Positions 3-55,280 of a stretch of DNA of 62,858 nucleotides are shown here, one piece after another. Below the pieces are notes generated by a model. It did no database searches, had not been told where the DNA came from, and worked only from the letters and a program-made list of their open reading frames with translations. A program made the translations under genes and the position numbers. This DNA comes from Candidatus Omnitrophota bacterium. GTDB taxonomy: Bacteria; Omnitrophota; Omnitrophia; Omnitrophales; Aquincolibacteriaceae. The stretch lies in NCBI GenBank assembly GCA_041674705.1, contig JBAYVF010000008.1:1-62858 (forward strand). Direction: 5' to 3'. Each line of letters opens with the position of its first letter. Position 1 is the stretch's first letter.

Positions 3-3000
3 CCCAGCGGACCCGCAGAGGGAGCATCACGTTCGGTCCTTGAAACAGCGATCGCGAAGCGTTCGGAAGTGCGGGGAGATTTCGACCCGGGAGCGACAAA
101 GGAACCGGGGGAGATAAAAGCTCGCCTGAACGCGGTGCTTTCAGAGATGTTTCGTTGGATTCGTGAAAAGGTTGAAGATCAGACTTTTTCCACATGGAGG
201 CCTGAGGCCGAAGTTCCTAACCGCGAACATGAATACATTCACGGGTTTAGCGCCCCCGGGTATCTGGATCCCGATTACGAAAAAATAAACAAGAGTATCG
301 ATTCTGAATACCTCCCCAGGTTCATCGCGCTTGGTGATCTGGCGATTCCTATCATCACGGAGTTGCTCGCTATTCCTGATGATAGTTCCAATCATTATCT
401 GAGGTTTTCTCTGGAGTATGTCGAATTCGCGTTGATGAAGCGGCAAGTGGAGGCTGGCCTTGCAGCAGTAGGAATTTCGCGGGTGGTGAATCATCCTGCG
501 AAACAAGGCGTTGAAATCGACCATACGATCAAGACGCTCGTGGAGTTATACAAATGGCACAGGGCTGCATGGACGAAACTCCTGGCCTACCTTGGCAAGA
601 AGTCTCAGCTTGATAGGGGCCGTCAGTTTACAGGGATCTATGTCTCACCGAGCGTTACGTTTCATCACATCATGAGCTCGTTCTCTGGGAATGGAGCTTT
701 TGGAGCCAAGAATTTTTGGGTCGTGGCGGTGCCGAGCAAGATCGATCCGCAGACGCTTGACTTCATGCCTGGCAAAGTACGCTTCAGCCGCTCGGAAGTG
801 CGCAATCAGAACACAGACCAGAGACTACAGACAACAGACCAAAGACCAACGACCAAAGACAAAGCTTCAAGTCTCCGGTCTCCCGCCACTAAAGTATCGG
901 CGGGCAGGCCAGTCTCCAGTCTGCTGTCCTCGGTTTTAGCGGTGGTGATGGGGATGATGGCGGTTTCCGTCAGGGCAGCGGAGAACACCCTTGCGGGTAG
1001 GATCCCTGCTTCCGGTCAAAACAAGGTTTCCTCCACCACTATCCAACAGATCTCTTTGACCCAGGCGGAGGTCCACCTGCTTGAAGAAGTGATGAATGAA
1101 GTGCACCCTACGTCCTTCCTGTTCGGCATGATGGATTGGGCCAAGGGCTATTTTAATGCGTTGGGCACAATAAAAACCCATCGTGCTCAGGGAACGCCGG
1201 TTCCAGATCGCGTTGTCACGGTCCGGACTGATTTTCCGCCTTTTGTTGAACGAGGCGTTCTGAAGAGTCTTTTCAAAAAAAGCATGATCGATGCGAAATC
1301 CAGCGCGATCGAAAAAGCTGTGGCGGAAAAATGTCTGATGATCTTTGGAAGGAATTTTAACGAACCCCTTGGGATCGCTTTGAATGATTCTGATTATTAT
1401 GTCCGTATCATTGCGGCTTATATCCTCGGAAAGCAAAATAACGACCCGAGGGCGATCACAAAGCTGTTGGAAATGCTAAAACAAGATAGCCCTTACGTCG
1501 ATCTCAAGTCAGTTCACGCGGGTGCTGCGATCGCAATAGGCGAGATCGGGACAAGAAATGAAGTTCAAAAACTGGTCGATATCGGGATCAATGAAAAAAA
1601 TCCAAAAGTCGGCGGGCTTGTGCTTGCTGCGATCCGTAAAATAGAAAAACGGGAAGGTCTGTCTCCGGTTACGGTCGATCTCCGGGAAAACGTCTCGCCG
1701 TCTGAAGTGTTTTTGGACGATTTTGATATGGGATGGATTAATGGTCTTCCAGACGAAACGACCGCTCATGAGAGGAAATTCCAGAACGCTCTCCTCGGCC
1801 TTCAGGAAAAAGCCGACAACGTCAAAAAAGAGGCCGCCGAAACATTAGGCCGGTTGAAGGATCGGCGCGGTATCCCCGTCCTGATCTGGGCTTTGAAAGA
1901 AGGGGGGGGGAATGAAGTTCGTGCCGCGGCGGCAAAGTCTCTCGGTGAGTTCGGCGACGAACGGGCTATTCATCCTCTGAAAAAGGCCGTTGAATCCGGT
2001 GACGAATCCCTTCGCCAGGCTGCGAAGGAAGCGCTCGAAAAGATCCAATCCTCTTTCCGCTCGGAAATGCGGGTAGATCTTATCTTGATCGCGTTCGTTG
2101 CCTTTTTCGCCATTACCGTCCTTCTTTCCGGGCATGAACTGCGGCATGTGAAAGCGCTTAAAAATAGGGATGAAGGGAGATATGGAAACTATCGAGCGGT
2201 CCTTGCTCAGCGTCTCGCGCAATTTAAGGGTATCGAGAACCCCACCGAAGAACAACTGCTTGCAGGAGCGGTGTGGGCCGCGCCCCAGGCTCCGGCGTTT
2301 TTCGCGGCTTTGGCCGGAGGCTTTGGAGCGTTTTATTTATTCCTGAGCTTGGGAGAAGTTGCTTTAAGCGCCGCTTTATCCTGCTTTGTTGTCTATTCCA
2401 TGGTGAAGTTTGGTGCTATCTCAATCGTGAATCAAGGGAAGTCCGGTCAAGGACCTGAGGATTCAAACCTATCCGATACCGAATCTCGCTCCGAAGTCCG
2501 CTTGCCCCTGCCTACCGGTCAGGCAGGCGCCAACGTTGCAGTGGCGGGGAAGGACGGCCGCGCGGAAGCGCGGGGGCAGCGGAAATGGTTAACGGCAATT
2601 AAAGCTATTCAGGGGTTAATCGTTGCTGTTGTGACTTCCAGAATAATCTGGAGCATTCATCTAATCGCGGCCCGTGGCCAAGAAGAGGCATTGGGAATAG
2701 ACGGTGTTGGATTACTTGGAATTATCATGGCGTGTTTGTTTATGGCGATACCTGCCGGGGTTGTTTTATTGCTGCCTTTTTTTGCTTGGAGTGGATTCCT
2801 GGATTACTTGTTTAAAAAATTCCCTACTCGATGGATCCCGGAAGGTTTCTCCCGAGACGATTTAAGGCGGCACTTACCTGTATTGGGCCATCTTTGGGAT
2901 AGCTTAAGGCTTTTGAAATGGGCGTCTTTACGGGACTCCGCAATGTTGCTTGCCATTGAAAATCATGATACCGACAAATTAGTTTCATTGGGTCATCCTC

Positions 3001-6000
3001 GAGCGATCAGATTTATGGCAAACGATGAATGGCTCGAATGGGATGCCAGCGCTAAAGACATTTGGAATGCGATGGCACTGCTCGAAAAATTTAATGCTAA
3101 AGAAAGAGATAAAACCAAAGCGCGTGAAATTTTTATAAAACACTTAACGTATGCCGCCTATAAAAATGAACATATTGGCGATCTTCATGAAACCGCTGCA
3201 CTGCTGAAAATGCTTAAGGCCACAGCTTTGCAAATAAGCGGTGCGGTCTCTCTGGTGCTTTCAACCTGTTCGAACCTCCTTCAGAACGATGGGAAAAATA
3301 TTTTTGAAAAGGTCTTGGAAGTAAAAGGAGCGACACCATCTTTCTTAAGAGAATATTTCCAAATGTATAAAGCCGGAATTTATGACCCCATTGTCAAGCT
3401 TGGATTGCCACCTGAACAAACGGTTCGTGATATCACCAAAGCTCTCAATCGCACAAAAATTTCCGTTATCCCAGCGGTTACAAGGGAGGAATATGAAGAG
3501 GAGACAGGGTATAACCAAGGCGGTCCTTCGACAGTAGAGGTTACCATTATACCTCGAGAAGAAAAGATCGATCTTGAACCGGCGATAAAAGAAGCGCAAA
3601 GAATTGTGGCAGAAGCAACAGGTCGTTCCGAAATGCGGACTTATCAGACACCCGTTATTTCTCAGATTCCAGCGGGTGATGCGAGCAATTTGACGGCAAA
3701 GATCGGGACGGCGATCCGAGTGGCGGCGAATACGCACCGCTCCGAAGTTCGGGGAAATCTGAGCGCTAAACCCTCTACGCTATTCGCTAAAAGGCTAATG
3801 CTGGCGGCGGTGATGGAAATGATGGCAATTTCCGGATTGGTGGGATGCGTATCATTCCGCCAGGCGACCCGTTTTGTTCCGGGCCCGACCAATTCTGCGA
3901 TGGTTCAGGCAGGGTCTCAGGTTTCTTCTCAGAGGATTTTGACCCGGGCCGAAGAGAAAAGATTTCGAGAGGCGATCAAAGGTTTAAAAGCCGAGCGTTC
4001 CTGGGACCAGGCAGACGCAGTAAAAGCGCTTGTTGCCTTGAAAGATCCACGTGCTATCCCCGAGCTGATCAAGTTACTGGATGCATCCACCGATGAGGAC
4101 TATTTTTATCACAACGAAGTGGTGAGCGCGATCGTTAAGCTGAAAGATTCTCAAACTGCTCCAAAGTTGATCGAGGCATTAAAAGATAAATCAGGGTCGG
4201 TGCGAAGCAACGCAGCCAAAGCGCTTACGGAGCTGAAAGATCCTCGAGCTTTCCTTGCATTGATTGAAGCCTTAAATGATGAGGACTATAAAGTTCGGGC
4301 TGCCGCCGCTGAGGCCCTTGGCGCTTTGAAGGATCCCAAGGCTGTTCCCGCGTTGCTCGTGAAATTAAAAGATGAATCATGGTGGGTCCGCAGCAACGCC
4401 GCCGATGCTCTTGGCGCGATAAAAGATTCCCGGGCTACCCCAGGGCTGGGCGAGGCCGTAAAAGATGAAAAAATGGGGGTTTTCATAAGCGCCGCGAAAG
4501 CCCTTTTGGAGATCGGAGATTTCGAGGCTATTTCTGTATTATTGTCAGCTTTAAAAGATCGCGAATATGACAATCTTTATACCGGCCTGTTCAGACAGAA
4601 AGCTCTGGAGAAGATCATGGGCTTTCTCGAAGACCCCCGCGCTATTCCTTTGGCGGTCGAGGCATCCAAGGATAAGGAAGATAATGTCCGCAATACTGCA
4701 GTGGAAGTGCTGAGACAGATCCGGAAGGCTGAGTCGGAGAGAAAAAAACAGAGCTCGCCGACGTCCGTGGATGCAAATGAAAAAGCCGAAGCCCGCTCGG
4801 AAACTCGCTCCCCAAGTTTCCGCACTGAGAGTGACGGCAAGGTCGGCACCGTACGTGCCGAAGTCCGCTTGATGCCCGAGCAACTGCATACGGCTGCCAC
4901 GGCGATTTTTGCCATTTCTTCTCTTTTGACCGTGTATTTTTCAGGGTCTCTTTTGTGGAAAGCAGTCAAGTTCAGAACGGGTAAATTTACCGCCTCTGAT
5001 CGTGAAATCGCACTGGCGAGAAGCTATCTGGCTCAAAAGGGGCTCCCATTCTATGTCGGGAAAAATATCGACCTTTTATTCAACGTCCTTCGTTATTACA
5101 TCGAAACGGATCCAAGATTGGCAAGAGGGTTTTTGCCTGTTGCTGTTCTGATGTATTACGGAATGATTAATGGGCCTAATTCGATCGGAGCTGTCTTGCT
5201 TGGCGGAAGCGTTATTGTCGCGTTTGCTTACGGGAAATTCCTGAAGTGGATCGCCGCGCATATCGCGAGCCCGGACGATCTTGACGTGAATCAATATGAC
5301 CGTCCTCGTGGTCGCTCCGAAGAAACCGGACGCCGTCCGGAGGGAAAGGGTAAAGAAGCCCGCTCGGAAATGAGAAATGATGAGCCCGACCTTGCGTTAT
5401 TGGGGGCTGTTATTAAAAGCATGGCTTATGGCTCGCCGGAGGCTGATGGCTTGCCGGTTCAGCTTGAAGAATTGTCAAGGTCGACCTTGTTATATATTTT
5501 TAAAGATCGTGATTGGGTTGCTCTTTCGGTAAAAAAAGGAATCAGCATGGCGGATAGTGAGCGCGATTCTGAAGGACTAGAGCCGGTCGGCGATGATGAG
5601 GCTAATGTCGAACAATCTATTCGAAAGATAAGGCAGCGCTTTGCCGACAGGCTCCGTGAGATTAGTCGGACGCCGAAGGCAATACGTGAGTGGAGATTTT
5701 TTGCGGAGGGGCCCGGAAAGAGCGGAGTTAATCTGCCAGGTTTGAAGCGGGAGGTACAATCCTTGGCAACGTTTACACCTGAAATTATAAGAGAATCCGA
5801 GGTTTTTCCGAATTTATCCCGAGAAACACTTATGGCTTTCTTTCTTGAGGATAAAGCGAGAGTTCGCAGATGGATAAGCGCAAACTTGCTCTCCCTCGAA
5901 GTTCCGGGCGCAATCTACGAAGCTGAGGATCGCCGTAAAGCGGTCGAAGATCGGATCGCGGCTAAGCTCGTTGACATGAGTACAACGACTTCTGAATTAA

Positions 6001-7430
6001 TGGAGCTCACCGAGCTGAAGGGAGAAGGGTTGTACGAAAATGGGGAGCTTTTTGAGAAATTAGCTAAAAGCCTGCCTTATTTTACCTATGCTCAGGCCTT
6101 TCTTGCTCAAGATTTTCCGGGTCGCGCCTTGGCCATCGCTAAGATCGATGAGTTTTATCAAAGGCAAGATATTAACGATCAAACAAAGGCTGAGATTACG
6201 GCGAGATTGAGTGAATTTCTTAAAAAAGAAGATCCGAATTTACTCAATCTGATGAATAGTCTTTTGAAAAGAAGCCAGGGGGCTTTTTACCTTAGGGGAA
6301 ATCCAGGTATGCCGGGTCAAAAGAAAACGGTTACCATCGAGATTCAAACTATCACTCGTGCGTTTCTCGAGCTTCTGAAGGGCGTATCCGATATAAAAGT
6401 GCTTAAAGCTTTAACTTCGGCGCTCATTCAATTACTTAGATACAGCCTTCTTTACGGACCTGCCGATGTTAAGGCCGATATTAAAGAGGCTCTCATCCGA
6501 TTTGACGATCGAGCCAAATCTGAAAGAATTCCTTTGAATATTTATGATCACATGGAAGCAGGAATTAAGGCGGAAATGCGGTCGGAGGTACGATCGAATG
6601 AAAAGCCGAATCGGAAAGCGCTTGATTGGGTAGTTTATCCGAAGCGAAATGCGTTGGAAACGATTGGAATTGACAAAAGCAGCATAGGCGCGAAGATCGG
6701 GACGGCGATCCGGGTAGCGGCGAATACGGTTTCGCCGCTGCTCTCAAGTAAGCCGGCGTATGCCTCAGAGATCGCGCCGCAGGTTTTTGCCGGGACAAGT
6801 CATTTTCAGAAGGTGACGGTGGTGCCTCCGGCGTTGGCGGCAAAATGGCCGGTTCTGAGTAAGATCATTGGCTCTTCCGCAACCGCTTCGACTGAGCGCA
6901 TGGTCATCGACCAGCGGCAGGGGATCCCTGATGCGGCGAGCCTACTGCCCTTGGTCACTTTCGCCGCTTACAATCCGAAAGCGAGCGTGGTGCTTGCCTT
7001 GATCGCGGATGCTTCTGATGTGGAGGCTTTTATTAAAGAGCTTGCGGCCTTGAGTCCGAAGGGCGCTCTTCCGCAAAATTTTAAGGTAAAAGCATTCGCC
7101 AACGAAAATGAATTCGTCCGGGCCTTTGCCGGATTCTATAACGATGCAGCTCCGCTTGGACAATCCGTGGCGCTTGTGACGGATCGCGAGAATTCGATCG
7201 TGACGAAGAAGATCGGTTCGCGCAAGAAGCTTTTGAGCGTGGTCGGTGCCACGAGTCCGTTGAAGCAGACTGCGTCGACGCTTCTGGCCGCGGACAAACT
7301 CCTCAATGAGGCGATCTGGTCTTTGGGGTATCACTTCGTGTCAGTCGAGAAACTCGGCGGTCTGGAGGCCCTCATGGCCGAATTGACGAGCTATGTCGCC
7401 ACCCAGGCGAAGGTATTGGCCTCAGCGTAG
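3..7430 (+). CDS. Giant modular protein G1, 5'-partial: HEAT/PBS-lyase-like repeat modules, TM segments, unknown helical modules and a C-terminal domain, separated by RSExR linkers
   Basis: The ORF track gives 69..7430, but the same frame is open from position 3 (PSGPAEGASRSVLETAIAKRSEVR...) with no stop, and the GTG at 69 is the V of an RSEVR motif. HEAT-like repeats (e.g. VRAAAAKSLGEFGDERAIHPL, VRSNAAKALTELKDPRAFLAL). 11 R[SA]ExR motifs. Ends ..ATQAKVLASA*. Confidence 0.9.
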   Translation, partial: PSGPAEGASRSVLETAIAKRSEVRGDFDPGATKEPGEIKARLNAVLSEMFRWIREKVEDQTFSTWRPEAEVPNREHEYIHGFSAPGYLDPDYEKINKSIDSEYLPRFIALGDLAIPIITELLAIPDDSSNHYLRFSLEYVEFALMKRQVEAGLAAVGISRVVNHPAKQGVEIDHTIKTLVELYKWHRAAWTKLLAYLGKKSQLDRGRQFTGIYVSPSVTFHHIMSSFSGNGAFGAKNFWVVAVPSKIDPQTLDFMPGKVRFSRSEVRNQNTDQRLQTTDQRPTTKDKASSLRSPATKVSAGRPVSSLLSSVLAVVMGMMAVSVRAAENTLAGRIPASGQNKVSSTTIQQISLTQAEVHLLEEVMNEVHPTSFLFGMMDWAKGYFNALGTIKTHRAQGTPVPDRVVTVRTDFPPFVERGVLKSLFKKSMIDAKSSAIEKAVAEKCLMIFGRNFNEPLGIALNDSDYYVRIIAAYILGKQNNDPRAITKLLEMLKQDSPYVDLKSVHAGAAIAIGEIGTRNEVQKLVDIGINEKNPKVGGLVLAAIRKIEKREGLSPVTVDLRENVSPSEVFLDDFDMGWINGLPDETTAHERKFQNALLGLQEKADNVKKEAAETLGRLKDRRGIPVLIWALKEGGGNEVRAAAAKSLGEFGDERAIHPLKKAVESGDESLRQAAKEALEKIQSSFRSEMRVDLILIAFVAFFAITVLLSGHELRHVKALKNRDEGRYGNYRAVLAQRLAQFKGIENPTEEQLLAGAVWAAPQAPAFFAALAGGFGAFYLFLSLGEVALSAALSCFVVYSMVKFGAISIVNQGKSGQGPEDSNLSDTESRSEVRLPLPTGQAGANVAVAGKDGRAEARGQRKWLTAIKAIQGLIVAVVTSRIIWSIHLIAARGQEEALGIDGVGLLGIIMACLFMAIPAGVVLLLPFFAWSGFLDYLFKKFPTRWIPEGFSRDDLRRHLPVLGHLWDSLRLLKWASLRDSAMLLAIENHDTDKLVSLGHPRAIRFMANDEWLEWDASAKDIWNAMALLEKFNAKERDKTKAREIFIKHLTYAAYKNEHIGDLHETAALLKMLKATALQISGAVSLVLSTCSNLLQNDGKNIFEKVLEVKGATPSFLREYFQMYKAGIYDPIVKLGLPPEQTVRDITKALNRTKISVIPAVTREEYEEETGYNQGGPSTVEVTIIPREEKIDLEPAIKEAQRIVAEATGRSEMRTYQTPVISQIPAGDASNLTAKIGTAIRVAANTHRSEVRGNLSAKPSTLFAKRLMLAAVMEMMAISGLVGCVSFRQATRFVPGPTNSAMVQAGSQVSSQRILTRAEEKRFREAIKGLKAERSWDQADAVKALVALKDPRAIPELIKLLDASTDEDYFYHNEVVSAIVKLKDSQTAPKLIEALKDKSGSVRSNAAKALTELKDPRAFLALIEALNDEDYKVRAAAAEALGALKDPKAVPALLVKLKDESWWVRSNAADALGAIKDSRATPGLGEAVKDEKMGVFISAAKALLEIGDFEAISVLLSALKDREYDNLYTGLFRQKALEKIMGFLEDPRAIPLAVEASKDKEDNVRNTAVEVLRQIRKAESERKKQSSPTSVDANEKAEARSETRSPSFRTESDGKVGTVRAEVRLMPEQLHTAATAIFAISSLLTVYFSGSLLWKAVKFRTGKFTASDREIALARSYLAQKGLPFYVGKNIDLLFNVLRYYIETDPRLARGFLPVAVLMYYGMINGPNSIGAVLLGGSVIVAFAYGKFLKWIAAHIASPDDLDVNQYDRPRGRSEETGRRPEGKGKEARSEMRNDEPDLALLGAVIKSMAYGSPEADGLPVQLEELSRSTLLYIFKDRDWVALSVKKGISMADSERDSEGLEPVGDDEANVEQSIRKIRQRFADRLREISRTPKAIREWRFFAEGPGKSGVNLPGLKREVQSLATFTPEIIRESEVFPNLSRETLMAFFLEDKARVRRWISANLLSLEVPGAIYEAEDRRKAVEDRIAAKLVDMSTTTSELMELTELKGEGLYENGELFEKLAKSLPYFTYAQAFLAQDFPGRALAIAKIDEFYQRQDINDQTKAEITARLSEFLKKEDPNLLNLMNSLLKRSQGAFYLRGNPGMPGQKKTVTIEIQTITRAFLELLKGVSDIKVLKALTSALIQLLRYSLLYGPADVKADIKEALIRFDDRAKSERIPLNIYDHMEAGIKAEMRSEVRSNEKPNRKALDWVVYPKRNALETIGIDKSSIGAKIGTAIRVAANTVSPLLSSKPAYASEIAPQVFAGTSHFQKVTVVPPALAAKWPVLSKIIGSSATASTERMVIDQRQGIPDAASLLPLVTFAAYNPKASVVLALIADASDVEAFIKELAALSPKGALPQNFKVKAFANENEFVRAFAGFYNDAAPLGQSVALVTDRENSIVTKKIGSRKKLLSVVGATSPLKQTASTLLAADKLLNEAIWSLGYHFVSVEKLGGLEALMAELTSYVATQAKVLASA
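807..934. repeat. Heptamer-based degenerate inverted repeat inserted in frame in G1
   Basis: Eight 7-mers (CAGAACA CAGACCA GAGACTA CAGACAA CAGACCA AAGACCA ACGACCA AAGACAA) followed by complementary-type arms (AGTCTCCGGTCTCC, AGTCTCCAGTCTG). Starts 3 nt after RSEVR 789-803. Confidence 0.7.
1380..2050 (+). other. HEAT-repeat module 1 in G1
   Basis: Repeated 'VR..AA..LG...D.RAI..L' units (DSDYYVRIIAAYILG, KKEAAETLGRLKDRRGIPVL, EVRAAAAKSLGEFGDERAI). Confidence 0.8.
2507..2527. repeat. REP-like hairpin CCTGCCT-ACCGGTC-AGGCAGG, in frame in G1
   Basis: Perfect 7-bp arms, directly after RSEVR 2487-2501. Encodes LPTGQAG. Confidence 0.55.
3960..4730 (+). other. HEAT-repeat module 2 in G1
   Basis: About 7 tandem ~31-aa units (DKSGSVRSNAAKALTELKDP, DEDYKVRAAAAEALGALKDP, DESWWVRSNAADALGAIKDS). 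Confidence 0.85.
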
Positions 7431-7524
7431 TGAATTTCATTGAATTCACACGCTGAGGTATTTGCACAAAGGTGCAAATGCCTTAGGCGTAGCGGATTAT
7501 CGAAAAATCCGCGTCAAAATTTCG

Positions 7525-7561
7525 ACCCTGTACACACCCGGTGTGTACTGGGTGTTTTTTT
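7525..7561 (+). terminator. Putative intrinsic terminator downstream of G1
   Basis: Stem GTACACAC/GTGTGTAC (7530-7548), extendable by ACCC/GGGT, followed by a T-run at 7555-7561. It lies between convergent G1 and hicA. Confidence 0.5.
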
Positions 7562-7585
7562 GGGGGGGCAGGTGAGGAGGAGGTT

Positions 7586-7817
7586 TTATTTCAGAAGATC
7601 GGTGAATTCTTCGGGCGCGATACGGGCGCCGCGAAGGATGGCACGCAGCGTGCCGGGTTTGACGGTTTTAGAGCCGTGAACCGGAACAATGGCGCGTCGG
7701 TTGAGATCGGTGTGATGGCGCAGAACAGCGTGACTCCCGGATTGACGTAGAAGAATAAACCCGGCTTTCTGAAGGGCGCGTCACGCGGCGGCCGCTGACT
7801 TGGGGAACGAAGGGCAT
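7586..7817 (-). pseudogene. hicA: HicA-family mRNA interferase toxin, frameshifted near the 5' end
   Basis: ATG at 7817 gives MPFVPQVSGRRVT; another frame continues RALQKAGFILLRQSGSHAVLRHHTDLNRRAIVPVHGSKTVKPGTLRAILRGARIAPEEFTDLLK* (HicA GSH, VPxH and GTL..IL motifs). Length is 232 nt, and restoring one CG in GTGACGCGCCC gives 78 codons. Not in the ORF track. Confidence 0.8.
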
Positions 7818-7820
7818 GAC

Positions 7821-8045
7821 TCAGGCTTTATTAAAAGGGACCGAAACATCGCGGATCATTACGTGAGATTTTTGCAGAGACTCGCGATCCTGTTTCACAG
7901 ACCAGCAGTAAAGGTGAATGGCTTCCTTGATGTTCTTGATCGCTTTCTGGCGGGTCTCGCCCTGCGAGGCGCATCCGGGGAGTTCCGGAACGTAAACGGA
8001 ATAACCGCCCCCTTGCTCTTTCTCCAAAACAACCTTGTATTTCAT
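7821..8045 (-). CDS. hicB: HicB-family antitoxin (UPF0150-type, short)
   Basis: MKYKVVLEKEQGGGYSVYVPELPGCASQGETRQKAIKNIKEAIHLY is the HicB signature. ATG 8045 has GGAG upstream (preferred over 8078). Its stop is 3 nt from the hicA start. Confidence 0.9.
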   Translation of the reverse strand: MKYKVVLEKEQGGGYSVYVPELPGCASQGETRQKAIKNIKEAIHLYCWSVKQDRESLQKSHVMIRDVSVPFNKA

Positions 8046-8094
8046 AAAGACATCTCCGCGGCTAATTTTTTTTCGCATCGTTGCTTCTTTTGAG

Positions 8095-8123: not shown

Positions 8124-8184
8124 ATCAGCTCGAAAGGCGAAGTAAGCTTTGCGCTATGCAGGGATCTTGGCGTGAGAGACACAA

Positions 8185-36596: not shown

Positions 36597-36787
36597 TGGA
36601 TTTCCCTAATCCACGCGCCGCAGTGCTTGCGCGTTGGGCGCAAGCGCAGTCGGCGTAATGGATTTCCCTAATCCACGCGCCGCAGTGCTTGCGCGTTGGG
36701 CGCAAGCGCAGTCGGCATAATGGATTCCCCTAATCCACGCGCCGCAGTGCTTGCGCTGCGCATTGGGCGCAAGCGCAGTCGGCGTAA
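36585..36787 (+). repeat. Tandem repeat: units of 62, 62 and 67 bp plus a terminal 12-mer, each starting with the last codons of G2
   Basis: CAGTCGGC(G/A)TAA at 36585, 36647, 36709 and 36776. Each unit holds hairpins TGGATT..AATCCA and GCTTGCGC..GCGCAAGC. Confidence 0.95.
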
Positions 36788-36988
36788 TTCAGGCCACAGG
36801 CAACAGACTGCAGTTTAAAGCGTTTTCGATCTATCTATATCTTTCAGCCCTGTGCCTCAATGAAAGCTCTCTATTGATCAAACTTGATAGAATCTGCCGC
36901 TTAAAGTTGTCCACTCAAAGCCACGAAATACCCGCGCCCGTTCACCCCTCCAGGCTATAATTTTTAAAATTTATATGTGTCCTATCTC

Positions 36989-46000: not shown

Positions 46001-49000
46001 TCCGCCTGTGGAATTAAGGTATCTTCAGCAGTATTTGGAATCTCTTCCCTCAGACCCAATTTATTATCTAACAGAAATTAGTAATGTTCTCAACGATCTT
46101 TTGGGGCCATCCGTTCAAATGATCATCAACGTTGCAACGAACCAGCATTTGGATCCTGGAACGCGAGCCAAAGCTGCAGAAATGCTCGCAAAGTACGGTC
46201 TTCATACGGATCGTAATGGGAAAGCAATAAGCCTGAGCTCAATGGCTTCGCCGAACCTAAAAAATATAAAATTCAGGCGGCATGGCGAATCTTTTGTTCC
46301 AGACGTGCCAATTAAAGTGCAAGCCGATGAAGCTGTCGCGCAGCAGCTCCTAGATAAAGAGGCATTTGTTTTTGATATTGATGGGACGCTCATTTCTCGG
46401 AGGCTGGATCCTGAGATCGTCGAATTAATCATCGAGCTTCTTAAGCGAAACAAGACGGTTGTTTTTGCAACAGTGAGAGGGCTTACATTGGAAGATTATT
46501 ACGCTCATATCCAAAAAGGAGAAGGGCTCGGCATTCTCAAGAATATTTTTGAGCACCCTGATTTTAAGCCGGAAATGCTTTCCAAGATCTTTGCTTATAC
46601 GGATGTGGCAAGTTACAAATATGCTTTTCGCATGAAACCCGGTCATTTTCGTTCTGGATGGTTCAATGTCGAACCTTTTCCGGATAAAAAATTTACCGCT
46701 AAATATCGGCAAGCCAAGATTTTTTCGGAAGAAGATGCCATTCGTTTGAAAGAGATTAAAACATCGCTTTTAGAGATTGAGAACCGTTTTTCCAAAGAAT
46801 ACGGTTTTGCTAATCCTGATCAGGATTATGAGGGTTTTGTGCGTGGCGCTAAGATTCAGGAAGATGAAAAAGCGGTTCTTTATTTTCCACGGACAAAGCA
46901 GGGCGAAGTTGAGAATTGGAAGCTGAGGAGCATGCTTCAAAAGCTCAGGGATCGATTGGCGGAAAAATCTCCTAAGGAATTCGTCAAAGGGCTGACCTTC
47001 CGCGTTGTTTGGCGCAAGGGGATAGTTATTGCGAAGCAGAATAATCGGAAGAATGAAGCGCTTTTGGATCTTGAGGCGATGGGTTTTTCCAGGGACAAGC
47101 TTTGTTTTTTTGGGGATGACGTCGTAGCGGACGGGCTTGACCGTTTGGTTGCCGAGATTCCTGGGCTTATGGTTATATCAACTGCAGCGCCGATTCCCGG
47201 AGAGATTTCAATGTTTCAAATTGAAACCGAAACTTCGAAAAGCGGACCTGATCGAGTTAAGCGTATTATGAAAGCCTATCTCAACCTCGTTCAGCGGGGA
47301 ATGATCCGTTCCGAAGTTCGTCTTACCGATTCGGAAGTGAAGGAGTTTCTGGCCAACTGGGTTGTTGAGGGGCATCGGTTCAATCCTGATGAGCTCCAGC
47401 CGGTGAGCCGGGCTGTTTTTCTAAGTGAGGCGGAGAGCCTTGGAAGCGCCAATCCTGAATGGGTCCTGAGAAGTATCTTGGGGAAAACTTCCAGGGAAAA
47501 AATTTCTGCTGAAGAAGTTGAGCTTTTTCTTTACCAAGGGAAGGTGAGACCAGTCTCAATTCTTTACAAGCCGCGCATCCGGCCTGGGGATATCCAGCAT
47601 TCGAACCGGTTTAAAAAAGGTGTTCCTGTCACGTCAAGCAATCACCCGATCTCTCCGGTTATCGCGGAGAGCCTAGCTGCGGCACTTGTTGCGAAGATGC
47701 GCTCCCGTATCGATTTGAGCGAACATGCTAGAAAAGGTCTCTGTGTCCTCGGGAAATATACGGGAAGCTTGGTCCTCGGTAGTTTGGTAGCAAATCTTTT
47801 GAAACTGCCTTTTGTCACTCTTACGAAACGGTCTTATGCCTTTGATCTTCCCGCGAATAAAGAGATGGTTAAAATACCGGAGCCACATATGCCTCCAGAG
47901 AATCCGGAATATTTTTCCTACATGACTTTGCCTCACAACAGTCGTGTTCTTTTTGTCGACGATGAGATTACTTCAGGGGAGGTGGTGAAAAATACGTCTC
48001 AGGCGCTAAAGCAGAATCTGAACGCAGACATGGTGGGAGTTGGCGTGGCACTTGAATCTTCTCCGGCTGCGCGTCTGCGTCTTGAGGAGATGAATCTGCC
48101 ATATACCTCACTCGATCAGCTCAACGAAGGGGATCTGGCAGCTGCTGATAAAAAAAATAGTCCGACTCTTGTTCCTTTCCGAGAAGCGATACCCCTTGCA
48201 CTTCGAACTGAAGTGAAAAAATCGGAGAAATCATCCAGGGATATTAACGTGGAGTTCCTCAAAATGAATAATGGGGCCGTTTTTGCGGACCATCCATTTC
48301 GGGGAATGACACTCGGCTTAGATCCAGATCTCTCAGACCAGGTTGGAGAAAGGATTGCGGGAGAATTGGAAGAACAACTAGGCTCCCTGAGCGCCCTTCG
48401 GAAAAAATACTATGAAAGGGGAAGGACCTTATTCATGGTTGGCACGACCCCCAGCGGGATACTTGGGGCTTTGCCGGCCTCTCGTGTTACGCGACTTCCT
48501 CTTATCGGTGCTATGAACCGTCCCGAACCCAAGGATTATGATCAGCTCAATATGTCAGATGTGGTCAACTACATCGGGTTGGACGGATATGCTTACTCGA
48601 TGTTCGGCTTGACGGCTGGAGACGGGATTCTTCTCGTGACGGGGGAGCTCACGGATGGAGAAGAACAGATTCGGATCATTCAATCACTGAAACAAAAAGG
48701 GATTGATGTTCTCGGAGTTGTTTCCTTGATCGAAAATACACGGTACAGCGGGCGGGAAAGGATCAGGCAAAACGCCGGCGTCTTTGTAACTTCGCTTCAA
48801 CCCTACCAGGCCAAAGAAAATATTCCAGAAGTGAACGTGACAGATCGATCTTGGGCGGCTCTTAAGTATGCCGTCATGCTCTTAGAAGACGAGATCAAAA
48901 AAATCAACCCCGAGGCGTACTTGGATTCCATTCGTGTGCTTCCCAGTTCGTTAACCGGAAATTTCATGATCTCGGCAAGCGATCTTGATGAAGCTTATAT

Positions 49001-52000
49001 TTGGGTTGACGGGTTAAGTCAATTTCAGCTCGAGCAATTACAGCCGGTTTTTAATCAATGGCTCGAAAACGGCGGTTTTAAGTTTGACGGTCATTCGAAT
49101 AAGGCCCCACTCTTACTATCATTATGGCATCGTGAGTCGAATGAAAAAATATATGAACTTCATCATTTTCCGCACATCGAAATTTACCGCGGTGGGCAAT
49201 TTTATTCACCCGAGGCGCTGGTTAAAAGCGGAGTGTTGCCCACGCGAAAAGTGCAATCGAAAAATCTAGCGCGATTAAAATGGTTTTATTCTTTAAATGA
49301 AATTGGTGTGGAGTTTCTTAAGGACTTGCTTGTGCTCGCAGTCAAATCAGGCAAATGGCCGCAAGGAAGAATCAAGGTTTTGAGCGATCTTATCGACAAC
49401 CTGGCGAAAGAACGGTTGAGCGCAGCTGCGCTTGAATGTCTGCGATGGATCGACCGAGAATATCTAGCCGGGACAAGGGACCTAGCCATTCCACAGGAAA
49501 AATCGGAAGTTTTTCAGGCTGCGCTTCAGGAATTGGTACAAAAAGGCATTTTTCGAATCTACGGAAACAAGATCTTATTAGTGACGCGTCATGGAACTGT
49601 TGTCTATTCGGATCGTTTTTGGAAAGATCAAATGCGTATCTTGGGCCATGATGATTTTTTGAAGTTCGTTGAAGCTCGGTGGCGAATGTCAACGCCGGAA
49701 TATCGGATGATGGCTGAACAGTATTCAGCCGCAATCATAAAAAAATGGGATCGTGAAACGCCAAGACTTCTTCCGGAATTAGTGATGCGGTCATGGATCG
49801 ATCGTATGGCCCCTTTAACAGATGAAGAAAAAGAACGCTGGTTTGAATCCTTTGAGTGTGATGACGCTTTGATCTTTGCAGCCGCTATTGAGGCGGGAGA
49901 GCGGAGGGAGGTGGAGCTTAAGGAATTTTTGAAGCGAAAGGTCCTCGCAATATTAAATCTTCCTGCAGAAAAGAACGGCTCATTACACTCCTATTCGGGT
50001 CATTTGCAAGTGCAGCTTCATTTATCCCTCAACATGATGTTTCGATGGATGCGTCAGCACAAAGGTGTGATCGATGACGACATCCTCTTCATTATGGACG
50101 CTATAATCAATGGTCCTAAAGATATTCGCATCCCGTCAATGATTTTACAGGACCTGACGGTCTATTTTGCAGGAGTTTACGAACAAATTATGGACAATGG
50201 ATTAAAACAACGCGTATATCGTTTCATTCGAGACGAAAAAGGGAGTTTTAAATACCGTTCCAACCAGTTGGGAAGTAAAGCGTTTAAAACGATTATCGAG
50301 AAATCTCCGGAGGACGCTGCTTTGGTATCGTCGCAGTCTTTTCGGATGATCGCGCCTGAGGCAGTTCAGAATGAAGAACGGAAAAAAATATTTCATGCGA
50401 TTGAACGAAAAAGAAAAAATGGCCAGCCCATCGAATTTTTAGCTTCCGATTGGGATGGTTCTTTGGTTGCGTTTTCTTCCGGGCAAGAAAGCAGGCTGTC
50501 GCCCGAGATGGCATTCTGGCTCAACTGGCTTATGTCGAAAGGTAAGCAAATAGTGATCACTACGGCAGCTTCCTATTCGCGATTCTACCGCCAAACAATG
50601 GATCCTAGTTCCAATCCGGTCCCGCTTGTTAAATCCAAAAATTTCAATGTTTTCAATGACACGGTTGCGTATTTAAATGATCGGCCGGTTTCATTACGCG
50701 AGTTTACGCCATCTTTTTTAAAGCAGTTACATGCAGTTATGGAAAAAATGAAATGGCATTTTCTCGATGACGGCAGGCCTCCTCAGCTGGCTTTTTGGCA
50801 CGAAACGCTCTCACGTGAAGAAGCGGTCCGGGAATCGGAGGCGATCAAAAGCCTGCTGCCGCAAGGAAATAATTTTTATTTAACGTTGTCGAAATTTCGA
50901 AAAAACGAATGGATCATCAAGCTTTATTACGAAACCAAAGAACTTATTTATCAAACTCCGCTGGCCAATGGTGAAAAAATTCAGCCAGGTCGTTCTCTTG
51001 TCATGGGAGACGATGCAGGACCGATGGGCAATGATGAGCCGCTTTTTCGAGGCGCGGCAGATGGCCTTAAGATCGCTTTGGGCGAAGAAAATATCTCAGG
51101 TGCTATGACCATGCAAACCAAAAATAAGGAAGGCGCTTTATTGGCCATCGAAGCGTGGGTCGCGTCGATTTTAATTGATGAAGCGTCTCAAGAATTGCTT
51201 CCTTTGGGAGAGAAACTTCAAGAGTTAGTAGTGATGATTGATGGAACGCCGGGTCTCGGCCCTGAAGTCTCAGAGCGCATGAAGAAAAACATCGGTGGTT
51301 TGCTAGCAAGAGTCAGGAGTGAAATGCGCGCCGATGAATCGGGCGAATTAACAGAAGAAGATTTGATCAGAAAAGCGGTAATTGAAAACCCTAACGCGGT
51401 TCTTCCCTCACCCGTCTATTTTCTGGAACTACATCCGACGAATCAGTGTAACCTTCGCTGCAAAGATTGTATCGCGGGTAAACGTGATCATGCGTTTGTT
51501 TTTCCATTCGACCAATTAAAAAATGTCGGTACCCTCAAGCCCTCTGAAGTATTGGTGATCGGAGGCGGAGAGCCGACCATCTATCGGGATGGTCAGCATA
51601 ACTTCAACGACTACATTTTAAAACTTGCCGCTGTTGCGCCGCAGGCAAATATTGGATTGGGTACGAACGGTGTTTATGTGCCGAAAGGGGATTGGACAAA
51701 GAAAATCAAATGGGTCAGCATTTCTTTGCATGGGACCAGTCAAGATCGGTTCCTTGGTTTTACCGGACGAGATAAATTCGACCAGGTTTGGCACAATATT
51801 TTTCAAGAATACGCGCTTAAAAGTCCCATTGAAGAAATTAAGATTTCTTTCGTATATACGAAGGAGAACTTAAAAGAGGTTCTGCCATTATTAGAGAAAA
51901 TTCGGAGTGCATGGACAGCCGTTGAGGCAGAGTTAGCGAAAAAAGGCATTAAGAAACGCTTCTGGTTTTATTTGCAGGCTGAAGCCGTTGACCATGGCCC

Positions 52001-55000
52001 GGATAGGCCCTTCGCTATTTTAAACCTTGATGATGAGTCCAAACGTATGTGGGCGGATGCGGTGGAGAAAATGCGTATTGAGAATCCGCCGTTATGGGCA
52101 TTTATTCAAGAGCATTGTCCCTGGATTTCCGGTGGACCGTTGAAGGAACGCAAGTCTGAACCTGCGAAACTTTGCTATATGGTAACTAATTATCTCCTTA
52201 TTGCCGCCAGCGGGTTAATTTACCCGTGCTGTGTAATGCCGGCATCGGCTCCCCGAACGAATCTCGGGCACATTACACAATCTTTGGAAGAGCTTCTTCG
52301 TAGACGTATGAAATTCATGTTCGCGCTACCTAAACGCTGTCGCATAGGTTGTCATATAGGCAATACGCTATCCGGGCAGACTGTAAAAAGACTATTATTG
52401 GAACCGGCCAATGCGGCTAACCCGGATTTGAAAATTAAAAACGCTCAAGCGACGAATGGAGTACAAGTCTCCGCGACTATTTCTTCAAACACCAAACAAG
52501 TAGGTCAGATCCAGCCCACCGTTAATGAACGAGAGAATCGATCTGAAATGCGCGCCAATGCTGTTGACTTAGCGCAGCAGAATAAAGATCTGATCGATCG
52601 CTTATTTTATGCGAAAGGTGTGCTGGCTGCCGAAGGTGCGAGGGTGGAGATGGCGAAGCGCGGGTTGATACTTTTAGAGCAATTTCCGATCGAAGATAAA
52701 CAAGTTATGGGTGCTGTTTTTAGGATGCGAGTTCGGGAAGTTCTGGGATCACGGATTTTATTGGCTGTGAAAGTTCCTAGCGTTGAGCGTGCGGCGTATT
52801 ATTCTTACGCGTTTGGAAATGTTGATTTGCTTGTATTACCAGCTGGCCCAAAGCCGGTTGAGCAACGGATGGCTAATGCCGTGCTGGATGAGTCAATGGT
52901 AAAACGATTGCCACCCTCCGTCTTTCCGAAAATATTTCGATATCTTGATTTTGGGCAGAGACTGAATTTGCAGACATTGAACTTTATTTTAGATTACCCT
53001 TGGAATGCTTCCAGTCCGGATGTTTATGAGCGAGAACTTGCTCAACTCCGCAAATACAGAAATGAAGCACCCCTGGGGCGCTTAATAACGAATAGAGAGA
53101 TGTTCCCAACGGATCGCGACGGAAATTTATACGCTCTTCATATTACAAGTGGCAAGTCAGCTATTCTTACATCTGCGAATAAAGAGATGCATACTACGCC
53201 CCATGCAGTTGGACCCGTTATTTATGCAACACCGCTTATCAGGAATGGTTTGAAACCGCTTTCTGAATCAGCAAAACCGGTCAGCCTGGCTGAAGATGTA
53301 TGGAAAAATCTGAGCGCTCGCCGGGAGATCGCTCATGATGAAAACATTGACAACTATGGGCTCGTGATCCGCGTTCCCTATCAAAGCGCTAGCGCAAATC
53401 GATTGACGAATTGGGTCGACTATTTTGGCTTCGGGCGCGCCGAACTCGAGACCTATTATCGTTTTCGAGCTAGGCCGGAGTGGACACCCGTTATGGATAG
53501 CATTATCCAGAAAGAGGTTGCCAGACAATATAACAGTTCCCATGAATTTCTTAAGAAAATATTGGGTAGCCGAAGCGTGGATGTCCAGCGAGATTGGCCG
53601 GCTTTCTGGGGCGCATTTAAAGAAGCTAGGGGCAATATGCCGATCCTCAATCACGCGTTTTTTGAAATCTTAAAATCTTATATTTTATTATTTCAAAACG
53701 ATCAGCAGTCGTTTGCAATGCGCGATGAGGGAAATATGAATGTGGGGCTTCAATACAAAGTGCTTTTTGAGGTCGATCCGAATCAGCGGATGCATTTCAG
53801 TACCCAACGTTTTACGCCCGAGATAGATGCTCTTCTGATCGCGCTCGCTAAGCATATCCGTTCCTTTTCTTCCGACCATTTTAAGGCATATGTCATGGAA
53901 CGCTTCCCGATGTTTATTGCCATTAAATTCTTAGAAGGTGAAACCCTTTCAGGTCCAGTCGATCAATTTGACGACTTGGCTGTGCGGCTTCCGAATATCG
54001 CTGGTTTATTACATTATAATGTTGCGTACGATAAGCTTTTAGAAACCTCATCGGATTTGAAATATGAGTATCAGCTTGTTTTTTCGCAGGTTTTGCGAGA
54101 CATTTTTAGAAAACGACGTATTTTTGTCCCGATTTTTGGGATGATGGTTCCGACGGGCGAATTAGGCGTGTGGCAGATGGGCGATGAAGATATTAAAATT
54201 TTTGATTTGTATTTTGATTTGCCCAAGCAAATAAGCCCATTAACTATTGGTAAGTCGTTGGATATTCATATCGCACGAAATAAGACGATTCGGGATGAAG
54301 AACGAGGATTAAGCTACAAGAGACCGGTGCGCGACGAATCTACTGCAGCTCATTCGGAGGAGAGTGATAAGCGGGATCGAAAAGAACATGGAAAACGTTC
54401 CGAAATACGAACTGTTACAGAATTATTGACGGACCGATATGCCTCGGTGGTGGGGCTGGAAGTGGAGGTCGGGCAACTGGATGAGGCGAGGCTTTCTTCT
54501 GTGACGCTGACGGCGCTTGTGCATGGCGGGATCTTTAACATTGGAATTTCTTCTGCGAAGATCGAAGCTGCGATTCGTGAAGTCCAGGCCGCGATGGCGG
54601 GGGATCTTTGGAGCGGAAATCTGAAGCGACTTCAAAAGGTGATGGCGTCCCGTCCGGATTCGATTTTTAAACCGTCGGATGCCCAGGGGGGGCTGATCGT
54701 TCCTCTTAAAGGTTTACCCGCCTCAGACCAGATCGCTCGCGATGTGTTTGCGATGATCACGAATACGGGCGTTCGGAAAACATATGTGTTGGAAGACGTA
54801 TCGGAGGCAGCTTGGAGATCTTTGCTCGAGCCCTTTGCGGCGACGAAAGATCTAAGAGGCGAATCGGTGCTTGATCGCTTGAAGATCGTTCCTGCAAAAA
54901 AAGGCGACCTGATGAAAGTAGTTTCGAGCTATGGCACGGGCATGGCACATCTTCTTGAGATGGATCCCCAGGATATTGTGGTGCTTTTTGAAGGGGCTGG

Positions 55001-55280
55001 GGCGGTTCCCGCCAGGGAGCGGATGGCTCAGACCATGATCGTCTCGGATCTTGGGGGTCGAGAGAATCTTGGACCGGCGCGCGATTACCTTGCGATGTGG
55101 GCGTCCATGATGAATGTCCGGATGGATAACGATGCCTGGACGCTTCTTAACCAAAAAGTTGCGAACGCTCTGAAAAAGAAGGACGGATTTTTTAAAATGG
55201 ATCGCGATGCCCTGGCAGGCCTTGCCGAGATCTTGAGCCAGATCTTTGTGCAGGAGCGGGTGACCTCAACGGCAGCGTAG
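37080..55280 (+). CDS. Giant multi-enzyme protein G3 (6,066 aa)
   Basis: Uninterrupted 18.2-kb ORF with TTG start and AAGGAG. Signal-like N-terminus, shared N-terminal domain, more than 12 enzyme-like domains separated by R[SA]ExR. Ends ..QERVTSTAA*. Confidence 0.93.
   Translation: [6066 protein letters not shown]
37275..37339. repeat. Heptamer inverted repeat, in frame in the G3 N-terminus
   Basis: CGGGGAA CGGGGAA CGGAGAA ... TTTCCCG TTCCCCG TTTGCCG TTTCCCG. Confidence 0.7.
37350..38760 (+). other. Conserved N-terminal domain of giant proteins (G3 copy)
   Basis: IENAH (H at 37374), FVEGAAE, QREKVF, VTGGFH (38634-38645); colinear with the G2 domain. Confidence 0.8.
38447..38507. repeat. 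GTCAT..ATGAC two-hairpin miniature element, in frame in G3
   Basis: GTCATCCCCGAACGTTTTAATCGGGGATC-AAGGTC-TGGATTCCCGCTTTCGCGGGAATGAC. Confidence 0.85.
39180..40350 (+). other. Radical SAM domain 1 with C-x15-C-x2-C and a SPASM/twitch-like tail
   Basis: Cys at 39291, 39339 and 39348; VTGGGEP, MNTNG; C-terminal LCF...GMCCD...HCIVGC. Confidence 0.75.
40600..41950 (+). other. GT-A glycosyltransferase, mannosyl-/glucosylglycerate synthase-like
   Basis: [14 protein letters not shown], LIDSD (DxD), [36 protein letters not shown], EKIHK. Confidence 0.7.
41990..42660 (+). other. 2H phosphoesterase-like domain
   Basis: Two His motifs, LHTAI (42201) and IHMTL (42468), with typical spacing. Confidence 0.65.
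42700..43740 (+). other. NAD-dependent epimerase/dehydratase (extended SDR) domain
   Basis: [20 protein letters not shown], YELGK (YxxxK), [9 protein letters not shown], RDYI. Confidence 0.85.
43750..44780 (+). other. ROK-family sugar/cyclitol kinase domain
   Basis: [44 protein letters not shown]. Confidence 0.85.
44830..45960 (+). other. Sugar-phosphate cyclase (DHQS superfamily; sedoheptulose-7-P cyclase/EEVS-like)
   Basis: [63 protein letters not shown] (45597), HGEAVAID. Confidence 0.85.
46340..47290 (+). other. HAD-superfamily phosphatase domain 1
   Basis: FDIDGT (46374), FATVRG, K in RKNEAL, FFGDD...GLD. Confidence 0.75.
47620..48820 (+). other. Two tandem type I phosphoribosyltransferase-like domains
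   Basis: [11 protein letters not shown] (47955) in the first; degenerate [11 protein letters not shown] in the second. Separated by RTEVK at 48204. Confidence 0.65.
50420..51150 (+). other. HAD-superfamily phosphatase domain 2
   Basis: ASDWDGS (50448), VITTAA, LVMGDD..PMGND. Confidence 0.7.
51380..52400 (+). other. Radical SAM domain 2 (canonical CxxxCxxC) with a SPASM/twitch-like tail
   Basis: [13 protein letters not shown] (51447-51470), GGGEPTI, LGTNG, LCY...IYPCC...RCRIGC. Confidence 0.85.

Follow-up and report, generated by a model that had tools for sequence, protein, structure and literature searches.

The first 55 kb of contig JBAYVF010000008.1, from the Candidatus Omnitrophota assembly GCA_041674705.1, are occupied by three long plus-strand open reading frames (ORFs), here called G1, G2 and G3, whose products carry 25 copies of a five-residue motif, R-[S/A]-E-x-R. 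The stretch of DNA analysed, hereafter the window, is this 62,858-nucleotide contig, which is contig C8 of a 58-contig, 1.78-Mb genome that is 87% complete. G1 combines 11 motif sites with HEAT-repeat modules and several hydrophobic helices. G2 runs from a conserved N-terminal domain (the head) through a SecA-like ATPase and more than 30 hydrophobic helices to a C-terminal domain (the tail), with six sites and the variant RSEVK along the way. In G3, the head is followed by a series of domains recognized by Pfam, namely two radical SAM domains, a 2H phosphoesterase, an SDR epimerase, a ROK kinase, a DHQ synthase, a HAD domain and a PRTase, and then by the tail; its chain contains eight sites and, beyond the signal peptide, no strong transmembrane (TM) helix. 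The genes downstream of G3 (NadE, Ogt, ArgS, MiaA and HflX) are ordinary.

Sites were taken from a regular-expression scan for R[SA]E.R in the translated frames. All 25 strict copies reported in an initial annotation of this DNA are in frame (24 non-overlapping copies and RAETR at 34158, which overlaps its neighbor), and the three variants it named, RSEVK, RTEVK and RAELI, are present (Table 1). The same annotation noticed no copy from nadE to hflX, and this part of the window indeed holds no in-frame site, its single match, at 55962 on the minus strand, being a chance one.

Table 1 Giant ORFs, scaffold domains, targeting signals and motif sites in the window (aa, amino acids)
Feature	Position	Strand	Remarks
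G1	3..7430	+	giant ORF, 2,475 aa seen; open at the 5' end (start off contig)
RSEVR	60..74	+	G1 aa 20
RSEVR	789..803	+	G1 aa 263; Sec-type signal peptide 36 aa downstream
Internal Sec-type signal peptide	912..977	+	G1 aa 304-325; h-region VSSLLSSVLAVVMGMMAVS, then VRA↓AE
RSEMR	2058..2072	+	G1 aa 686; TM helix begins at +1
RSEVR	2487..2501	+	G1 aa 829; doublet, member 1
RAEAR	2559..2573	+	G1 aa 853; doublet, member 2; signal-anchor-like segment next
RSEMR	3624..3638	+	G1 aa 1208; doublet, member 1
RSEVR	3738..3752	+	G1 aa 1246; doublet, member 2; lipoprotein signal peptide immediately after
Internal lipoprotein-type signal peptide, GNLSAKPSTLFAKRLMLAAVMEMMAISGLVG↓C	3753..3848	+	G1 aa 1251-1282; lipobox LVGC (..AISGLVG↓C); heads a HEAT-repeat module
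RSETR	4794..4808	+	G1 aa 1598; doublet, member 1
RAEVR	4854..4868	+	G1 aa 1618; doublet, member 2
RSEMR	5361..5375	+	G1 aa 1787
RSEVR	6579..6593	+	G1 aa 2193; tail border
G1 tail	6594..7427	+	278 aa past last motif; ends ..VLASA-COOH
G2	8646..36596	+	giant ORF, 9,316 aa
G2 head	8646..10280	+	signal peptide and conserved ~500-aa domain (QDAH..AQ, EG, FY..A..R and GGFH motifs)
RAELR	10788..10802	+	G2 aa 715; first site past head
SecA-like ATPase of G2	11370-12812	+	G2 aa 909-1389; directly after head
RAELI (variant)	15864		
RSEVR	26892..26906	+	G2 aa 6083; doublet, member 1
RSEVR	26934..26948	+	G2 aa 6097; doublet, member 2
RSEIR	34146..34160	+	G2 aa 8501
RAETR	34158..34172	+	G2 aa 8505; overlaps RSEIR at 34146
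RSEVR	34833..34847	+	G2 aa 8730
RSEVK (degenerate variant)	35886..35900	+	G2 aa 9081; tail border
G2 tail	35901..36593	+	231 aa past variant RSEVK; ends ..AQSA-COOH
G3	37080..55280	+	giant ORF, 6,066 aa
G3 head	37080..38810	+	from conserved head alignment and AlphaFold2 (AF2) model
RAEVR	39078..39092	+	G3 aa 667; first site past head, ahead of radical SAM domain 1
RAEVR	40437..40451	+	G3 aa 1120; doublet, member 1
RSEAR	40551..40565	+	G3 aa 1158; homologous modules of two other genomes start exactly here with their own RSEVR/RAEMR
RSEMR	42675..42689	+	G3 aa 1866; between 2H phosphoesterase and epimerase
RSEVR	47307..47321	+	G3 aa 3410; upstream of PRTase domain
RTEVK (degenerate variant)	48204..48218	+	G3 aa 3709
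RSEMR	51315..51329	+	G3 aa 4746; codons AGG AGT; 35 aa ahead of radical SAM domain 2
RSEMR	52539..52553	+	G3 aa 5154
RSEIR	54396..54410	+	G3 aa 5773; tail border
G3 tail	54411..55277	+	289 aa past last motif; ends ..TSTAA-COOH

A strict peptide motif at cassette borders

Composition alone predicts about 0.8 sites in the 17.9 thousand residues (kaa) of G1-G3, against the 25 observed, and the corresponding degenerate DNA pattern gives 44 matches in the window versus 13.3 ± 3.6 in shuffled sequence. When giant and ordinary proteins are compared across the genome, as the initial annotation had proposed, the enrichment is found in the giants: proteins of at least 2,000 aa contain 173 sites versus 3.9 expected, and those below 1,000 aa contain 24 versus 16.4. 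The 13 motif-bearing giants hold 185 sites in frame and 3-13 in each of the other five frames, and the enrichment is restricted to the reading frame of head-bearing giants. An unbiased k-mer scan returned RSExR as the top enriched motif, both overall and in nearly every head-bearing giant taken singly, the exception being G2 (6 sites in 9,316 aa). RSExR is the sole strongly enriched k-mer in this genome, where no other punctuation motif was found, and [AS]SLG, a motif considered below, is not enriched in the window. The enrichment extends to relatives, as 85 head-bearing ORFs from about 30 public Omnitrophota metagenome-assembled genomes (MAGs) contain 347 R[SA]ExR versus 7.9 expected, and 57 database representatives, sampled among members of at least 1,000 aa, contain 163 versus 7.4.

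The motif is also strict. Lysine at R1 or R5, aspartate at E3 and threonine at S2 occur at background frequency only, while position 4 accepts M, A, V, T, I or L. Around the sites there is no flanking consensus at either the protein or the DNA level, and the sequence from about -25 to +15 is more prone to disorder. Each of the six Arg codons is used, as are both Ser codon families, so that the earlier proposal of synonymous codon variation with selection acting on the peptide is borne out by the codons and by the background frequency of near-miss peptides alike. A DNA-level motif was considered and rejected on three grounds: enrichment in one frame, codon variation within the genome-specific versions of the motif (dialects, see below), and near-miss peptides at background. 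The motif is therefore a strict short linear motif selected at the peptide level, and its invariant R1, E3 and R5 in a flexible linker fit binding in an extended conformation.

To place the motif relative to the modules, we compared cargo regions of this genome and of about 30 public MAGs (67 regions, 203 kaa in all), which gave 390 cross-genome high-scoring segment pairs (HSPs). Their starts lie within 25 aa of a motif in 64% of cases (random mean 13%, maximum 25%) and their ends in 31% (random mean 12%, maximum 19%), and 23% span a motif internally versus a random mean of 68% (minimum 57%). The starts concentrate on the motif itself, so that a cassette comprises the motif and the module that follows it. 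Where alignments run through sites, 41 of 56 internal motifs align with a motif of the other genome, and per-position identity (R.79, S.70, E.84, x.16, R.77; flanking residues.2-.45) makes the motif an island of conservation within a poorly conserved linker. The same test on paralogues within the genome was uninformative, with 9 HSPs only, because the modules are nearly all unique; the cross-genome test was used in its place.

Individual modules follow this pattern. The Pfam domains of G3 are all located between sites, and the first residue of a stand-alone homologue of the epimerase would map 2-3 aa past the RSEMR at G3 aa 1866. When G3 aa 1000-2000 was compared with 30 relatives, its modules were found singly and in different giants, with matches ending at motifs; at the corresponding position each homologue has an RSEVR or RAEMR of its own, although its upstream neighbors are unrelated. 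Within this genome, contig C54 carries a second copy of the module at G1 aa 686-829, 75% identical, with the match running from one motif to the next. Cargo turnover is fast, and for the final 1,300 aa of G3 the 30 relatives contain no homologue. The motif thus marks the N-terminal edge of exchangeable cassettes; its placement at domain junctions, proposed in the initial annotation, is upheld, with the qualification that some junctions have no site.

Doubling of the motif, described earlier as frequent, is seen only mildly, as 28 of 172 gaps are shorter than 50 aa versus about 20 expected under a Poisson model. The peptide AKIGTAIRVAANT occurs twice in G1 (window 3699-3737, aa 1233-1245, and about 6690-6730, aa about 2235), once in the 38-aa spacer of the doublet RSEMR/RSEVR and once about 45 aa past the RSEVR at aa 2193. 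The same 38-aa spacer shows 60% identity to a giant of a congeneric genome. Because of this recurrence and this match, the spacers between doubled motifs may be small conserved units, not debris.

The head-tail scaffold and the family it defines

The cassettes are framed by a constant head and tail. The head (about 550 aa, including the signal peptide) is common to nine giants of this genome, the G2 and G3 heads aligning with seven paralogues, and across the nine its invariant residues are H99, Q105, E127, G128, E375, F487, Y488, R494, GGFH519-522 and P542 (G3 numbering). It occurs in all 31 relatives of the same order, at 7-55 copies per genome, and public loci with the same head domain come from 'Candidatus Omnitrophota/Omnitrophica bacterium' MAGs. 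These loci were retrieved with a three-sequence head alignment, the nine-sequence alignment being too divergent; a single-head query for related loci gave no match. At the other end of the chain, complete family members all finish in an amphipathic helix and ..[SA][SA]A, usually with the last motif 230-300 aa before the end, and an ending of this type is also found in the stand-alone paralogues described next and in database members.

The scaffold also exists without cargo. A stand-alone head-and-tail protein of about 730 aa, free of motif, lies divergent beside a giant in at least 17 MAGs (loci L076-L100), on the minus strand about 4-5 kb upstream of the giant's head, and ends in ..KAA or ..KSA; no copy was seen in this 87%-complete genome. 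Its AF2 model (predicted local distance difference test, pLDDT, 76) shows the head joined by a disordered linker to a tail domain of alpha/beta type. Searched against 1.84 billion representatives, a profile built on this protein matches 7,848 clusters at 50% identity, 6,295 of them at E<=1e-10; the head is N-terminal in every case, and the 150 best matches listed range in length from about 125 aa (fragments) to 6,699 aa. With a head in G2 and G3, a tail in all three, and unrelated modules preceded by the motif, G1-G3 belong to a very large Omnitrophota family of head-cargo-tail proteins, of about 6,300 clusters at 50% identity. The second proposal of the initial annotation, a fixed N- and C-terminal scaffold to which cassettes are added in frame, agrees with the conserved head and tail, the exchangeable modules and the existence of the cargo-free protein.

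The nature of the head is less clear-cut. The AF2 model of the G3 head (pLDDT 76) has an alpha/beta core into which a helical segment of about 300 aa is inserted. The heads match neither Pfam (hmmscan) nor the PDB by sequence, and Foldseek searches of the head and of the head-and-tail protein against the PDB returned nothing at E<=0.001. Among the weak Foldseek matches, the erythromycin-esterase-like proteins 2RAD/3B55 and EreC 6XCS recur (E 0.5-1.8, template modelling score 0.14-0.21). Best matches to PF01963 (TraB_PrgY_gumN) are sub-threshold in 15 of 31 genomes (13-19 bits versus a cut-off of 26.8); 14 of the 18 listed cover positions about 160-263 of the hidden Markov model, mostly in giant ORFs and in 12 or more relatives, and fall at or just past GGFH where the position of the head is known (the C16 giant of this genome, G007 and G018). 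The head resembles the Tiki/TraB-PrgY-GumN/ChaN/erythromycin-esterase superfamily in its alpha/beta core and in a His...(28 aa)...Glu pair with a GxxH motif (QDAH99, E127, GGFH522). It differs from this superfamily in its insert of about 300 aa and in having no match that reaches a curated or significant threshold. H99, E127 and H522 may be the counterparts of superfamily catalytic residues, as in EreB and Tiki. We regard the link of the head to this hydrolase superfamily as real but unproven, and the head as a putative member. The tail looks like a generic Rossmann-like alpha/beta domain only.

Giant ORFs are a sizeable part of this genome. There are 15 of at least 2,000 aa, amounting to 86.6 of 576 kaa or about 15% of coding capacity, on contigs C2, C5, C7, C8, C16, C19 and others. 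Their cargo is nearly free of paralogy, the 9 HSPs of at least 100 aa leaving roughly 180 different modules. A second kind of giant, on contigs C10, C17 and C18, has neither head, tail nor motif; that on C17 carries PVYQWT repeats, that on C18 NTYTG repeats, and the 4,270-aa ORF on C10 a weak C39-like match. G2 is atypical within the head-bearing family, with clustered helices, PTGPT repeats and just 6 sites in its great length, and its second half has no Pfam match. The radical SAM 1 and PRTase modules of G3 have no PDB match by sequence.

The spacer between G2 and G3 contains a 62-nucleotide tandem repeat (window 36582-36790, three copies and a partial one) that starts within the last four codons and stop of G2 (GCC CAG TCG GCG TAA, encoding AQSA and stop). 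Later copies read GCG CAG TCG GCG TAA, so that the codons of the G2 tail end are reiterated in the spacer. An Rfam scan of the window gave no match.

Dialects, topology and how the motif may be read

Genomes differ in how they write the motif. In CAYQTU it is RPE[SA]R at 16 of 16 RxExR sites, in CAZDVO RSESR at 27 of 36, in DAOPYQ RAE[RKL]R and in JBAXGK RSE[TV]R, while a giant of the sister family f3 (G028) uses G[AS]SLG, with 10 in-frame [AS]SLG versus about 0.45 expected. The sites of one genome share its dialect across different giants, and within a dialect each position is written with several synonymous codons, including all Pro codons. Concerted change at dozens of unrelated junctions per genome needs a common reader of the peptide, and the pattern implies a genome-encoded factor that would recognize the motif; the genome-wide nature of the change argues both against a passive linker and against a DNA footprint.

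The topology of the chains bears on what such a reader would do. G3 places a Sec signal and a head before 5,500 aa of S-adenosylmethionine-, NAD-, ATP- and phosphoribosyl pyrophosphate-dependent enzymes, and in G2 a SecA-like ATPase stands behind a head predicted to be exported. In an uncut chain of either kind the modules could not all work on one side of the membrane, which argues for cutting. G1 contains a lipoprotein-type and a Sec-type signal peptide directly past motifs, hundreds to more than 1,000 aa into the chain; the former conforms to the established lipobox rule [LVI][ASTVI][GAS]C. Across the genome, the stretch just downstream of a site is twice as likely as a random position to contain a hydrophobic segment. 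Targeting signals so deep in a chain are sensible if the modules become separate proteins, or recently were. Judged by the N-terminus of the epimerase and by the signal peptides right after motifs, the modules look like complete proteins.

We consider the most likely mechanism to be site-specific endoproteolysis of a cellular polyprotein, to which we assign a probability of about 0.5. Under this model, cassettes each equivalent to a complete protein would lie between the signal-peptide head and the tail. The reader would be encoded once per genome, because all sites in all giants share one dialect, and would be a site-specific endopeptidase of the cytoplasm that works co-translationally or shortly afterwards, splitting the giant precursor into module-sized proteins. 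Among the products, cofactor-dependent enzymes would stay in the cytoplasm, and modules with a signal peptide, a lipobox or TM helices would be exported or inserted. An early-acting cytoplasmic endopeptidase would reconcile the topology, the internal signals and the hydrophobic segments downstream of sites. That the motif is cut, at which position and by what, we infer from sequence patterns, and the release of individual enzymes by a protease, which was the functional half of the initial annotation, is likewise an inference.

Several observations weigh against endoproteolysis. Some borders and many members lack the motif: at G3 aa 1612-1620 (window 41900-41940), homology blocks of other genomes end or begin where only ..ENQRMRMRYDD.. 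is found, and the orthologous module in G017 is followed by RAEMR, so that this looks like a lost or fused junction; G3 aa 1871-3409 contains four enzymes and zero sites; G2 aa 715-6083 contains zero sites; the first 6,665 aa of a relative 13,402 aa long (G019) are free of punctuation; and about half of the 57 sampled members have no R[SAP]ExR. Head and tail are contiguous in the stand-alone protein, yet cutting would part them in the giants. Codon usage is biased, R1 being CGC or CGT in 80% of cases and Ser mostly TCC or TCG, and some nucleotide-level constraint may thus act on the motif.

The reader itself has also been elusive. Among 60 heads, no residue tracks the dialects, with 0 private columns for CAYQTU and CAZDVO, and among 15 stand-alone paralogues there is no excess of private changes at invariant positions for CAZDVO and DAOPYQ. 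Two peptidase families were rejected on phyletic grounds: 30 of 31 related genomes lack Peptidase_C14, and Peptidase_S8 is missing from this genome and from 20 of 31 relatives. C39-like matches are weak and patchy and, in this genome, lie in a motif-less giant. No cognate protease was found among C14, S8 and C39, and the genes flanking the giants are housekeeping, with no conserved protease neighbor. The Tiki-like head is itself a candidate protease, though without dialect covariation.

The evidence for a peptide-level, genome-specific reader applies equally if the motif is never cut and instead serves as a docking or handling site, bound in extended form by a partner (a chaperone, an export or insertion factor, the head or the stand-alone paralogue) that organizes folding, translocation or assembly module by module on an intact chain. 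Every family member has the head, which is enzyme-like in its invariant His, Glu, His and Arg; head and tail form one protein in the stand-alone form; and G2 carries a SecA-like motor, all of which would suit such a partner. However, docking leaves the topology paradox of G3 and G2 unsolved and offers no account of internal lipoprotein and Sec signal peptides right after sites, and neither the head nor the paralogue covaries with the dialects. We therefore regard docking without cutting as unlikely.

The start of homology blocks at the motif and the very high turnover of cassettes would also be expected if the pentapeptide were a functionless by-product of recombination or insertion during the building of giants. 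The CGC-TCC-GAR bias, which recurs in giants of other families (L015, L017), would favor microhomology. Against such a footprint, a single dialect uses six Arg codons, both Ser families and all Pro codons; synonymous variants are common and non-synonymous near-misses stay at background; and motifs persist at orthologous positions even where overall identity is 20-40%, a divergence at which synonymous sites are saturated. The codon preference at R1 and Ser, moreover, equals that of highly expressed genes in the same genome and thus fits selection for accuracy at critical residues. A recombination footprint is accordingly quite improbable.

Position-dependent codons (CGC/CGT at R1, an enrichment for CGG/AGG at R5) and strict frame specificity might instead reflect a signal read by the ribosome, a co-translational pause or peptide-bond skip that separates or paces modules without a protease. 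A signal of this kind should not differ between congeneric genomes (RPE[SA]R versus RSESR) or give way to GASLG, the nascent chain upstream of sites shows no conserved context, and to our knowledge no known arrest or skipping peptide (SecM, MifM or 2A-type) resembles the motif, which makes this explanation very improbable. Least credible of all is the idea that the motif is a passive part of the linker structure, perhaps a salt-bridged turn, that nothing reads; this would suit the location in linkers and the abundance of charged residues but not the extreme strictness (no K, D or T substitutes), the concerted dialect shifts over dozens of unrelated junctions or the absence of the motif from ordinary multidomain proteins of the same genome.

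Comparison with known systems and implications

Omnitrophota giants of a multi-enzyme metabolic cluster class have been described (Nielsen & Lui 2026, bioRxiv 10.64898/2026.06.07.730766), and G1-G3 resemble them in phylum and in the many Pfam domains that tile one chain, including radical SAM, ROK and SecA-like domains. The question of cleavage has been raised for giants, the cleavage points being stated as unknown, and C39 and S8 domains have been proposed as processing peptidases (West-Roberts et al. 2023, bioRxiv 10.1101/2023.11.21.568195). In contrast to that proposal, S8 and C39 are absent or patchy here. A text search of both papers found no junction motif, and no description of a head-tail scaffold or cargo-free paralogue was seen in them; in Nielsen & Lui, terms for a motif, linker or cleavage do not occur. 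Literature searches for the motif or for an Omnitrophota polyprotein found no paper.

The logic of the system, judged by analogy, resembles that of viral polyproteins and of MARTX-type mosaics. Like the polyproteins processed by picornavirus 3C, potyvirus NIa and flavivirus NS2B-NS3, the giants comprise one ORF with many protein equivalents, a strict and lineage-specific linker motif and an apparent coevolution of site and reader; a conserved motif does lie at the junctions of protein equivalents, although some junctions have no site. They differ in being cellular and chromosomal, in involving about 13 genes and about 15% of coding capacity, in a cargo that varies highly between close relatives, and in having no recognized embedded protease, their sites being candidate cut sites. 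MARTX toxins share the constant N- and C-terminal frame around a mosaic of exchangeable cassettes, with effectors released by cutting in inter-domain linkers, and one MARTX effector, RRSP, is an endopeptidase of the Tiki superfamily. G1-G3 are not themselves MARTX proteins, as Pfam scans at E<=0.001 found no RTX-repeat or Peptidase_C80 (CPD) family in them; they also have an N-terminal Sec signal in place of type I secretion, a five-residue code in place of a Leu in a loop, and a cargo of housekeeping-type enzymes.

Large bacterial surface precursors are likewise cut at short motifs, as in Porphyromonas gingipain RgpA/Kgp/HagA and in Mycoplasma hyopneumoniae P97/P102 (S/T-X-F↓X-D/E). The motifs of such processed surface polyproteins are Arg/Lys, or a degenerate motif in disordered regions, and the products are functional fragments. 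Unlike these single-function precursors with few sites, the Omnitrophota giants join dozens of unrelated enzymes under a stricter, genome-specific code.

Taken at its broadest, the proposal is that in a large clade of Omnitrophota a considerable share of the proteome is made as true cellular polyproteins (here about 15% of coding capacity and about 180 almost entirely non-redundant modules), cut by a fast-coevolving, site-specific protease at a genome-specific five-residue code (R-[S/A/P]-E-x-R, or GASLG in the sister family) that doubles as an in-frame cassette socket. Whole proteins, among them exported lipoproteins and membrane proteins that bring their own targeting signals, would be strung together much as in an operon and made as a single chain after the constant head. 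We advance this wider claim tentatively, as possible but short of probable.

The discovery of giant genes in Omnitrophota raised the question of whether the encoded proteins act as single chains or are cut. The motif supplies exact candidate sites for cutting or handling, 25 in this window and recurring in hundreds of related genes, and on present sequence evidence it is the best candidate yet for where these giants are cut or handled. Annotation and structure prediction also gain a rule by which giants can be divided into units. Should cutting be confirmed, bacteria would be making ordinary cellular proteins by a polyprotein strategy of the kind hitherto known mainly from viruses, and a new sequence-specific protease would be expected, one that reads a simple and evolvable code of five residues. 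Whether or not the chains are cut, the dialects show a peptide 'code' that coevolves with its reader over dozens of sites per genome.

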